Shown: piece by piece, positions 35,121-55,463 of the stretch
Layout of the letters: each line of letters opens with the position of its first letter
Position numbering within the stretch: position 1 is the stretch's first letter
DNA from: [Eubacterium] saphenum
GTDB lineage: Bacteria; Bacillota; Clostridia; Lachnospirales; Anaerotignaceae
Assembly (NCBI GenBank): GCA_945912105.1
Contig: CAMEBC010000007.1
Coordinates: forward strand, 19,471-83,470
DNA length: 64,000 nt
Direction of reading: 5' to 3'
Translations under genes and position numbers: made by a program
The notes under the pieces: model-generated
The model's database searches: none
What the model saw: only the letters and a program-made list of their open reading frames with translations
What the model was told of the DNA's origin: nothing

Positions 35121-35318
35121 AGCACACCTCATAACGTCGCATCCAAATAAGAAAACATCTAAAACGGATAAATCTTTGATTTTCAAGGATTTATCCGTTT
35201 TTTGCAGAATGGGTAAGTTTTCTTATTTGGAATGTCGCTGGCAGTTCCCCTTAAGAAATCAATAAACGATTAAAGAATGTTTTCTTAAGGGGAACTACAG
35301 AATGGGTGTGCTTTTTTT
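35121..35318 (+). repeat. Copy 1 of a ~200-nt structured module (terminator nested in a three-way junction closed by a second terminator stem)
   Basis: P1 35121-28/35305-12 plus T7. P2 35142-56/35217-31 (15 bp). Inner terminator hairpin 35161-35201 plus T-run. P3 35243-58/35281-96 (16 bp). Homologous to 54098-54296. Confidence 0.7.
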
Positions 35319-51616: not shown

Positions 51617-52669
<1,053 letters not shown>

Positions 52670-53005: not shown

Positions 53006-54085
<1,080 letters not shown>

Positions 54086-54097
54086 TTAACGCAATAT

Positions 54098-54296
54098 AAA
54101 AAAGAGTCCGCAATGGCGCATCCTTAGAAAAAAACATGAAAAGGGGATGAATCCTTATATTTTAAGGATTTATCCCTTCATTCTTTTTCAATGTTTATTT
54201 TCTTCTAAGAAATGTCGCTCGCAGTTCCACTTAAGAAATCAACAAATCATAAAATCAATGTTTTCTTAAGCGGAACTACATAAGGACTCTTTTTTT
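54098..54296 (+). repeat. Copy 2 of the ~200-nt structured module
   Basis: P1 AAAAAGAGTCC (54099-54109) / GGACTCTTTTT (54284-54294) within a T7 run ending at 54296. P2, the inner hairpin (54141-54178) and P3 (54223-38/54261-76) sit in the same order as in 35121-35318. The 3' half is ~87% identical by eye. Confidence 0.7.
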
Positions 54297-54385: not shown

Positions 54386-54751
54386 TCAAATCATTTTCGC
54401 CAAAGAATGTCCGATGAAAATACCGACCAGACAGCTAAGCACACTCAGCAGAATATAAAAGATACCTGCAAAGGTCTGTCCGCCTTCCAGAAGCTGAAAG
54501 GCTTCCAAAGAAAAAGTAGAGAAGGTGGTAAAGCCACCGCAAAGACCAGTTTTCCAGAACAGCATCGTGTGACTGGAAATCTTTTTTCCATTCAACACCA
54601 TGCCAGCCAGAAAACCAATAAGCAAGGCACCCAAAATATTGGTCACCAGTGTTAAAAGCGGAAAGGAGATGCGGCAGGGCATCAAACTGATCAAATAGCG
54701 CAGCAGAGCACCAATGCCGCCGCCCAGCATTACAAAAATTCCGTTCATCAT
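54386..54751 (-). CDS. crcB: Fluoride efflux channel CrcB/FluC
   Basis: ORF 54386..54772. ATG at 54751 lies 10 nt after the response-regulator stop. GGGIGALLRY and GLCGGFTTFSTFS motifs. Confidence 0.85.
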   Translation of the reverse strand: MMNGIFVMLGGGIGALLRYLISLMPCRISFPLLTLVTNILGALLIGFLAGMVLNGKKISSHTMLFWKTGLCGGFTTFSTFSLEAFQLLEGGQTFAGIFYILLSVLSCLVGIFIGHSLAKMI

Positions 54752-54761
54752 ATCAATATCC

Positions 54762-55463
54762 TCAAGGTTCATCGATCATACGGTAGCCAATGCCAACTTC
54801 TGTAAAAATATATTCAGGAGAAGCAGGATTTTTTTCCAGTTTTCTGCGGATATTTGCCATATTTACCCGAAGGATCTGATTATCCTTGACCGCATAGGGA
54901 CCCCACAGTTCTGTAATGATAAAATCATATGTAAGAACACGACCGGCACTTTTCGCCAACAAAGATACGATCTTGAATTCAATCTGCGTCAGATGAACTT
55001 CTTTGCCATCTACTGTTACCTGGCGTTTTCCAAAGTCAATGGTCAGGCCTTTTGTAGAAAAGACATCACTGGTGGGGGCACCGTTGTTATTTTTTGCGCT
55101 ATGGCGCAAAGCTGTACGGATACGTGCCAATAATTCAGATGTACCAAAAGGTTTGCAAATATAGTCATCTGCGCCCAGATCCAATGCCTCTACCTTATCA
55201 GATTCTTCCCCACGGGCAGAAACTACGATCACAGGAACAGACGACCATTCTCTGATTTTTTTCAGGATCTCCATGCCATCCATATCCGGCAGACCCAAAT
55301 CCAGCAGGATCAGATCCGGACAATGGGATGGGATCATAGAAAGGGCTTCACTGGCTGTTTTTGCCACCAGAGGCGCATATGTATTGGCTTTTAATGTCGT
55401 TGCAATGAAGTTACAGATGGCATCTTCATCTTCGATGATCATTACTTTGATTTTATTCGGCAT
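54762..55463 (-). CDS. OmpR-family response regulator, KdpE-like
   Basis: 233 aa. DLILLDLGLPDMDG and SARGEESDKVEALDLGADDYICKPF closely follow the KdpE pattern. Winged-helix C-domain. Confidence 0.8.
   Translation of the reverse strand: MPNKIKVMIIEDEDAICNFIATTLKANTYAPLVAKTASEALSMIPSHCPDLILLDLGLPDMDGMEILKKIREWSSVPVIVVSARGEESDKVEALDLGADDYICKPFGTSELLARIRTALRHSAKNNNGAPTSDVFSTKGLTIDFGKRQVTVDGKEVHLTQIEFKIVSLLAKSAGRVLTYDFIITELWGPYAVKDNQILRVNMANIRRKLEKNPASPEYIFTEVGIGYRMIDEP

Follow-up and report, generated by a model that had tools for sequence, protein, structure and literature searches.

A probable small mobile repeat lodged in terminator loops of Anaerotignum-like Clostridia

The structured module that follows the gap and pyc genes in a 64,000-nucleotide stretch of [Eubacterium] saphenum DNA (the whole of which is here called the window) is very probably a small (~170 bp), non-coding, non-autonomous mobile repeat, resembling MITEs and REPs, that has lodged in the loops of terminators as a selfish insertion and is not a dedicated regulatory RNA. 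The repeat is restricted to one narrow clade of Anaerotignum-like Clostridia, and we regard it as a new family among the small structured mobile repeats known from bacteria, with an unusually precise site, the tetraloop of a terminator.

The copy downstream of gap (copy 2) spans positions 54098-54296 on the plus strand, the ORF on its 5' side being assigned to GAPDH by Pfam and crcB being located on its 3' side. It reads, in order, as a run of six A residues, the arm AGAGTCC (54103-54109), a stretch of ~175 nt, the arm GGACTCT (54284-90) and a run of seven T residues (54290-96), the first of which doubles as the final base of the GGACTCT arm. Its start lies 12-13 nt past the gap stop codon (54083-85), in agreement with the ~13 nt given in a preliminary description of this DNA, which had also noted the architecture shared with a second copy, likewise found here. 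The A-run with the 5' arm (54098-54109) and the 3' arm with the T-run (54284-54296) form the enclosing stem, P1; the 5' arm recurs in the orthologous loci L047, L048 and L045 of relatives, all of which lack the core, with an extended form in L016, and the 3' arm and T-run are identical to those of L047, L048 and L016. What we read as the leftover terminator tetraloop, GCAA, occupies 54110-54113, and the net insertion, a core of ~170 nt, occupies 54114-54283 (nhmmer against the seven-copy profile, E = 3e-50). The AA at 54112-13 recurs at 54282-83, and the boundaries of the core are ambiguous by these 2 nt.

RNAalifold, applied to an alignment of the seven copies described below, predicted three helices with 57 pairs, all placed here on the plus strand. 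Helix 1, together with the pair counts, delimits P2, the outer stem of the left hairpin, with a 5' arm at 54115-54135 and a 3' arm at 54197-54219, the latter including the invariant junction TGTCGCT that joins the left hairpin to the right one, P3. Helix 2 is an inner hairpin followed by a T-rich tail (54140-54179), in which a terminator scan flags 54142-54178; an A-run precedes and a T-run follows this hairpin in all copies, so that it resembles an internal, bidirectional terminator. Helix 3 corresponds to P3 (54223-54277), with an invariant T·T mismatch and an A·C mismatch in copy 2, and a CTAC at 54276-54279 covers the last two paired bases of P3 and extends two bases further. The P2 and P3 units are related in sequence, each being preceded by CGCA(G)T(T)CC and each carrying CTTA(GA)AGAAA / TTTCTT(CT)AAG arms; P3 measures ~60 nt, and P2 with the inner hairpin ~100 nt. 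With its flanking runs, the inner hairpin occupies 54140-54190 in copy 2 (the T-rich tail at about 54180-54190) and 35161-35207 in copy 1. In each of the seven copies the T·T mismatch sits close to the apex of P3 (54239-54261; GAAA-T-CA ... TG-T-TTTC), and hairpins that are read by a protein typically show conserved mismatches of this kind.

Copy 1, at 35121-35318, follows an ORF assigned by Pfam to pyruvate carboxylase (pyc). On the plus strand, the 5' arm of its enclosing stem, GCACACC (35122-35128), is homologous to the stem GGGCACGC-GAAA-GCGTGCC of the empty locus L050, and the 3' arm GGTGTGC with its T7 run (35305-35318) was placed by sequence, fold and comparison with L050; between them lies the core (35133-35302; nhmmer E = 1.7e-49), which is filled in the orthologue L003 and empty in L050, L051 and L052. 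The two window copies align at a mean column identity of 82% and fold with minimum free energies of -71.2 (copy 2) and -84.1 kcal/mol (copy 1), at z = -9.7 and -11.5, none of 200 dinucleotide shuffles being as stable; a 32-nt core pattern has exactly two matches in the window, where none is expected. The base changes reported earlier between the copies were all recovered. The P1 arms are unrelated yet paired (GCACACC/GGTGTGC in copy 1, AGAGTCC/GGACTCT in copy 2), and AAAT:ATTT in P2 is replaced by TTAG:CTAA (CCAAATAAG/CTTATTTGG in copy 1, CCTTAGAAA/TTCTAAG in copy 2). Furthermore, the basal pair of the inner hairpin turns from C-G to G-C and one A-T pair from A-T to G·T, and P3 with its linker matches at 61 of 70 positions, the single A·C mismatch being in copy 2.

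The nature of P1 emerges from relatives, which were reached through homologues (GAPDH, CoA-transferase and, for the closer relatives at gap, crcB), the trimmed GAPDH itself having no exact match on record. After gap, the empty loci L047 and L048 read AAAAAAGAGTCC-GCAA-GGACTCTTTTTTT (in short form AGAGTCC-GCAA-GGACTCT), with the stem of the window and a tetraloop in the place of the core, and the window itself reads AAAAAAGAGTCC-GC-AA-[TGGCGCATCC...GGAACTACAT]-AA-GGACTCTTTTTTT. Empty L045 reads AAAAAAGAGTCC-GTAA-GGGCTCTTTTTT (AGAGTCC-GTAA-GGGCTCT), with one T·G wobble in the stem. Relatives with 94-95% identical GAPDH hold a plain terminator and no core, for example L006 and L016 (AAAAGAGAGTCCATATGTATGGACTCTTTTTTT), the empty gap terminator of L016 reading GAGAGTCCATATGTATGGACTCT. 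Altogether, the core is missing at the gap site in L045, L047, L048, L049, L040, L041 and L006-L025. After pyc, L050 and L051 carry GGGCACGC-GAAA-GCGTGCCTTTTTT straight after the stop codon, the short terminator of L052 is a different one, and the filled sites, in the window and L003, read GCACACC-[core]-GGTGTGC. All empty sites come from metagenome assemblies, of which three independent ones agree at gap and two at pyc.

Because the empty sites keep the stem around a loop of only four nucleotides (GCAA, GTAA or GAAA), P1 of copy 2 is the ancestral gap terminator and the core a net insertion of ~170 nt in its tetraloop, which bears out the earlier proposal that P1 belongs to the local terminator and that the conserved core sits inside it. 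The P1 arms and T7 match the gap terminator of L047, L048 and L016 and resemble the pyc terminator of L050; moreover, P1 has the features of a Rho-independent terminator, a G+C-containing stem and a T-run directly after the gene, homologous to the terminator of relatives, and it is closed in the minimum free energy fold of all seven copies. The dinucleotide AA stands on both sides of the core in 7/7 copies and once in each of the empty loops, and the pair may represent a duplication of 2 bp, a crossover dinucleotide or a part of the element itself. In L001 (5388-5400 and 5578-5590), P1 has decayed to four pairs and the T-run is interrupted (TCTATTTTTATT), which fits relaxed selection on the outer terminator once an inner one exists.

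The preliminary description knew only the two copies in the window. A pattern of 21 bases from the junction and P3, searched in species-representative MAGs, recovered five more in three related Clostridia MAGs and at three further loci, bringing the family to seven copies at five loci in four genomes, each copy being enclosed by a stem and a T-run. L001 and L005 belong to one uncultured Clostridia MAG, L003 to another, and L002 (SFGI01000005.1) and L004 (SFGI01000001.1) to a MAG labelled [Eubacterium] saphenum. L001 is the gap orthologue of copy 2 and L003 the pyc orthologue of copy 1; L002, L004 and L005 follow genes for an anti-sigma factor, a SnoaL-like protein and a GNAT-like protein, respectively, and the upstream genes of the five loci, pyc and gap included, are functionally unrelated. 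The closest relatives in GAPDH and CoA-transferase bear the name Anaerotignum sp., in keeping with a position of the organism in the Anaerotignaceae (Lachnospirales). The SFGI01 MAG holds both of the subfamilies described below, the element being otherwise found only in Anaerotignum-like genomes, and the taxonomic label of this MAG may be wrong.

In every copy the core runs from about AA-N-GGCGCATCC to GGAACTACAT-AA inside its own locus-specific stem and T-run, the enclosing stems of the three further loci being GGACATGATC/GATCATGTCC (L002), GAGGATGTCC/GGACATCCTC (L004) and GCAAACTCA/TGAGTCTGC (L005). The left edge is AA-N(1-2)-GGCGCATCC in 7/7 copies (with GTCGC in copy 1 and GGTGC in L001), and the right edge is AA throughout, preceded by CTACAT in five copies, by CTACAG in copy 1 and by CCTACT in L005. 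Outside the core the loci have nothing in common, the P1 arms being unrelated from locus to locus, and every copy, at all five independent loci, is oriented as its upstream gene. Core identity is 72-95% overall and resolves two subfamilies, A (copy 1, L003, L002) and B (copy 2, L001, L004, L005), with 88-95% identity within and 72-77% between them. Each occupies more than one locus, and the two occur together in the window genome and the SFGI01 MAG; cores that are 93% identical are found inside unrelated stems, at different loci and in different genomes. The exact-pattern scan detected just one or two copies per genome, five independent insertion sites are known, and searching ~647 kb of related loci with the seven-copy profile added a single truncated copy, in L043. 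A metagenome scan with a gapped anchor pattern returned 14 loci, all of them chance matches by nhmmer, and the element was found neither in viral contigs (two patterns) nor in plasmids and phages (blastn).

Across this family, the integrity of the hairpins is kept up. Standard pairs make up 97% of cells, slid controls falling to 41-56% paired, and seven pairs in the seven-copy alignment have changed on both sides; between the two window copies, divergence is 18% in paired columns versus 44% in unpaired ones. The compensated pairs nevertheless represent few independent events, because five of the seven mark one and the same split between A and B, three of these being adjacent in P2, and template switching in a quasi-palindrome could have yielded some of the changes at once.

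A preference for one strand is not apparent. The A-U to G-U change in the inner hairpin had been put forward as a pair that forms only in plus-strand RNA, an argument that fails on both the wobble counts and the fold energies: variable G·T cells on the plus strand number six and A·C cells, which are G·T on the minus strand, nine (five of them in copy 2), and the cited pair takes the states A-T, G-C, G·T and A·C across copies. In each of the four B-type copies the more stable fold is that of the minus strand (in copy 2, -77.6 versus -71.2 for the plus strand), and in the A type the plus strand folds slightly better. Copy 2 also differs from its orthologue L001 at 9.6% of stem and 6.6% of non-stem positions, and it is probably an old, decaying and drifting copy, since its stems have diverged as much as the remainder. 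Of the earlier claim of selection on structure, the part that stands is thus that pairing is constrained within the family; the part that would make the module a functional plus-strand RNA is not supported, given the few events, the missing strand signal and the unconstrained comparison of copy 2 with L001. Since both subfamilies have established themselves at several loci, the most fitting reading of the compensated stems is that the element needs them for its propagation or tolerability, and not that they serve a gene-specific RNA function. Additionally, the element would seem dispensable for gap expression, because it is absent where the flanking genes are ~98% identical.

These observations bear most directly on the alternative that the module is a functional 3' UTR RNA of the plus strand (an mRNA stabiliser, a 3'-UTR-derived sRNA or a regulator of read-through), selected for its structure and spread only secondarily, which we consider unlikely. 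Such an RNA would account for the very stable fold (z about -10), for the nearly complete pairing with its seven doubly changed pairs, and for stems that diverge less than loops between subfamilies, as RNA function also predicts; the element, moreover, always lies on the sense strand just past a stop codon, hence is transcribed up to the first effective terminator, and its gap and pyc copies have been kept in at least two lineages each. It is difficult to reconcile, however, with the absence of the element from genomes that are otherwise nearly identical around it, with host genes unrelated in function, with the excess of A·C over variable G·U cells and the better minus-strand fold of the B type, or with the lack of stem constraint between copy 2 and its orthologue. 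The internal terminator-like hairpin would, furthermore, stop many transcripts short of the P2 3' arm and of P3, and the element matches no Rfam family. Rfam 15 gave zero matches in the window at gathering thresholds and nothing meaningful for either copy at E <= 10, the best sub-threshold scores, 26.7 bits (cut-off 47) and 24 (cut-off 49), being generic hairpin matches.

A coding element was rejected as well. The seven copies have no length-conserved ORF and no good ribosome-binding site. Their sole common frame, MSLAVPLKKS..., begins at the invariant ATGTCGCT junction in 7/7 copies (54212-54283 on the plus strand in copy 2, where it stops at a TAA on the right edge of the element; 35232 onward in copy 1), and with a length that varies from 13 to 23 codons and no proper ribosome-binding site it is probably not a gene. 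No promoter-like site was found in the element.

The history of the gap site was approached with a neighbour-joining tree of the neighbouring response-regulator and kinase genes (2.25 kb), which gave (((window, L046), L045), (L001, L043)), then L047, L049, L040 and L041, with L006/L016 as outgroup. The site is filled in the window, L046, L001 and L043; empty L045, which shares 98.5% identity with the window in gap and 97.9% in regulator and kinase, is nested among these and shows no scar. An empty site inside a filled clade implies two events, either one insertion and a clean loss or two insertions at the same position, and allele replacement by recombination may be an alternative to both. The GTAA loop of L045 (10255-10275, minus strand of the locus) is the remainder if G[CAATGG...CTACA]TAA loses the bracketed part, and it is a possible excision footprint, equally explained by a single C-to-T change from GCAA. 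The Logan contigs of L046 and L043 both stop inside the element (L043 10435-10552; L046 4718-4844), the breaks lying at the inner hairpin in one case and within P3 in the other, which is consistent with assemblies that end at a repeat present in multiple copies in those samples.

The same loci speak to a reversed polarity, in which the core would be ancestral to these terminators and repeatedly deleted, an old structured terminator module in the course of being lost. L045 does resemble a clean loss within a filled clade, and deletion between the flanking AA repeats is conceivable, but many independent exact deletions would be needed (at gap in L047, L049, L040, L041, L006 and L016, at pyc in L050 and L052), each restoring a perfect short terminator. 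Such repeated deletions, starting from a filled ancestor and affecting all other lineages, make for a far less parsimonious account, and the 93% identical cores in unrelated stems would be left unexplained, so that we hold this reading to be very improbable. As the preliminary description had already argued, a one-off segmental duplication in this genome followed by random drift, for which the mere two copies in the window might speak, is refuted by flanks that share nothing, by differing P1 arms, by the five copies at three other loci in three other genomes and by an A/B difference common to several genomes.

Read as a mobile repeat, the element finds its nearest counterparts among MITE-like structured repeats at gene ends, such as Correia/NEMIS, ERIC, RUP, Bcr1, EFAR/Efa-1 and, most of all, YPAL and CIR (Delihas 2008, PMC2229807; Petrillo et al. 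2008, PMC2267715). YPAL is 168 bp long, has internal in place of terminal inverted repeats and targets that span or adjoin dyad symmetries, and CIR consists of two hairpin arms and a linker (PMC2229807); Efa-1/EFAR and other stem-loop families are present in Firmicutes (PMC2267715). Like the repeats of this group, the element is 100-200 bp long, non-coding and A+T-rich, with a transcript of long stem-loops. It lies just 3' of genes and, as expected of a classical MITE, is small, non-coding and present in several copies (seven at five loci), with filled and empty sites among relatives (empty at gap and pyc). In contrast to MITE-like repeats, it lacks TA ends and the terminal inverted repeats of 15-30 bp, its termini being unrelated, and has at most a 2-bp AA repeat; it sits exactly in a terminator tetraloop and in one orientation, at low observed copy number and with no known cognate IS. 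A comparison of the left end with the reverse complement of the right end revealed only a subterminal motif of 11-13 nt, CTTA(GA)AGAAAACAT, located 13-19 nt in from each end. The lack of terminal inverted repeats and of a clear target-site duplication prevents assignment of the element to a transposon superfamily.

REP families usually number tens to hundreds of copies. With REP/BIME repeats the element shares hairpin units 3' of coding regions, the lack of inverted terminal repeats and scarless presence or absence. In a possible parallel to the GTAG REPs, its P3 unit closes at the base with CTAC (GTAG in the opposite strand). This CTAC is found in 7/7 copies (shifted by 1 nt in L005), the left unit having ATGTC, and a lone tetranucleotide could be due to chance. 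Unlike REPs, the element has units of ~60 and ~100 nt as opposed to 20-40, well outside REP size; its left unit is untagged, the units are arranged head-to-tail and one contains a nested terminator-like hairpin, and no RAYT gene was detected among the 30 window ORFs scanned. For some GTAG/CGTC-tagged REP families, a location within small palindromes of the host has been reported (Di Nocera et al. 2013, PMC3733652). An IS200/IS605-derived (PATE-like) origin is compatible with hairpins near both ends, the lack of terminal inverted repeats and the nested empty allele of L045; a conserved target of 4-5 nt beyond AA/TT could not be defined among the copies.

IS1397/ISKpn1-type and IS110-type elements insert specifically in the loop or centre of REP palindromes. 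These, unlike the element, are full insertion sequences with a transposase and use one repeated target sequence; the element's target stems differ completely between sites, so its recognition of the stem is not sequence-specific. An IS110 bridge-RNA reading was dropped, by sequence reasoning, over these wholly different stems, and an integron attC reading over the absence of R'/R'' boxes. Class C (IIC) group II introns are described, in a passage of Waldern et al. 2020 (PMC7306698) that cites Robart et al. 2007, as homing to intrinsic terminators. They resemble the element in using the terminator stem-loop, known by its structure more than its sequence, as a low-cost hiding place, and hence in being indifferent to the function of the neighbouring gene. 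They differ in inserting after the hairpin and not inside the loop, and in being large ribozymes with a reverse-transcriptase ORF, whereas the element measures 170 nt and has no length-conserved ORF and no Rfam intron match.

How a mobile repeat of this kind would come to its sites may be sketched as follows. The core is inserted in the apical tetraloop of an existing Rho-independent terminator, at the AA then found on both sides, and would fold on itself into two related hairpins and a terminator-like inner hairpin of its own. The split arms of the host terminator would still pair as P1, preserving termination of the host gene and making the loop a near-neutral safe haven, and the site is probably tolerated because the compact fold and the element's own terminator keep the host gene terminated. 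If the inner hairpin acts as a bidirectional terminator, many gap and pyc transcripts may lack the 3' half of the element. The conserved, compensated hairpins would then be the recognition feature of the mobilising enzyme, what keeps insertions tolerable, or both.

Mobilisation would most likely occur in trans, by an enzyme that handles hairpins. Our first, tentative candidate is a single-strand HUH/Y1 transposase of the IS200/IS605-RAYT type, because of the hairpin ends, the lack of inverted terminal repeats, the scarless empty allele and the GTAG/CTAC tag; when a terminator is extruded as a hairpin, its loop would be the only single-stranded target for such an enzyme. A serine recombinase with a 2-bp AA crossover seems less probable still. 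The ORF of an autonomous partner would be expected between ...AANGGCGCATCC and GGAACTACATAA..., or between the P2 and P3 hairpins. Pfam showed no transposase or recombinase and no Y1_Tnp among the 30 window ORFs scanned, no cognate insertion sequence with matching ends was present in the window or in the ~647 kb of related loci, and the other parts of the window consist of syntenic housekeeping genes. We give a small chance to homing to terminator loops by an undescribed mechanism, with shape recognition of the extruded hairpin and of the AA of a GNRA-like tetraloop, in one orientation and with neither scar nor terminal repeats, and/or to domestication of the element as a portable 3'-end module, in which a bidirectional terminator and protective hairpins would set the 3' ends and stability of mRNAs.

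For RNA-motif discovery, the case is a caution that a structured RNA with apparent covariation, located just past a highly expressed gene, can turn out to be a selfish repeat whose hairpins are conserved for the element's own propagation or tolerance. It also offers a clean example of a mobile element that finds shelter in an intrinsic terminator's loop. Filled and empty alleles occur naturally and differ by exactly the element; they are ready-made for testing the effect of a 170-nt loop insertion on termination, and such pairs may help to find the enzyme by which hairpin-bearing repeats are mobilised in gut Clostridia.

The surroundings of copy 2 show two further features. The crcB gene (54386-54772, minus strand) separates gap from the response-regulator gene in the window, L001, L040, L041 and L045-L049, and L006-L025 lack it; its 11-nt overlap with the end of the regulator gene (54762-55463, minus strand) makes it look like the last gene of the kinase-regulator operon, and no fluoride riboswitch was found by Rfam in the whole window. 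Upstream, two GAPDH genes lie in tandem on the plus strand (51620-52669 and 53063-54085), ~390 nt apart, an arrangement that is conserved in all relatives examined.
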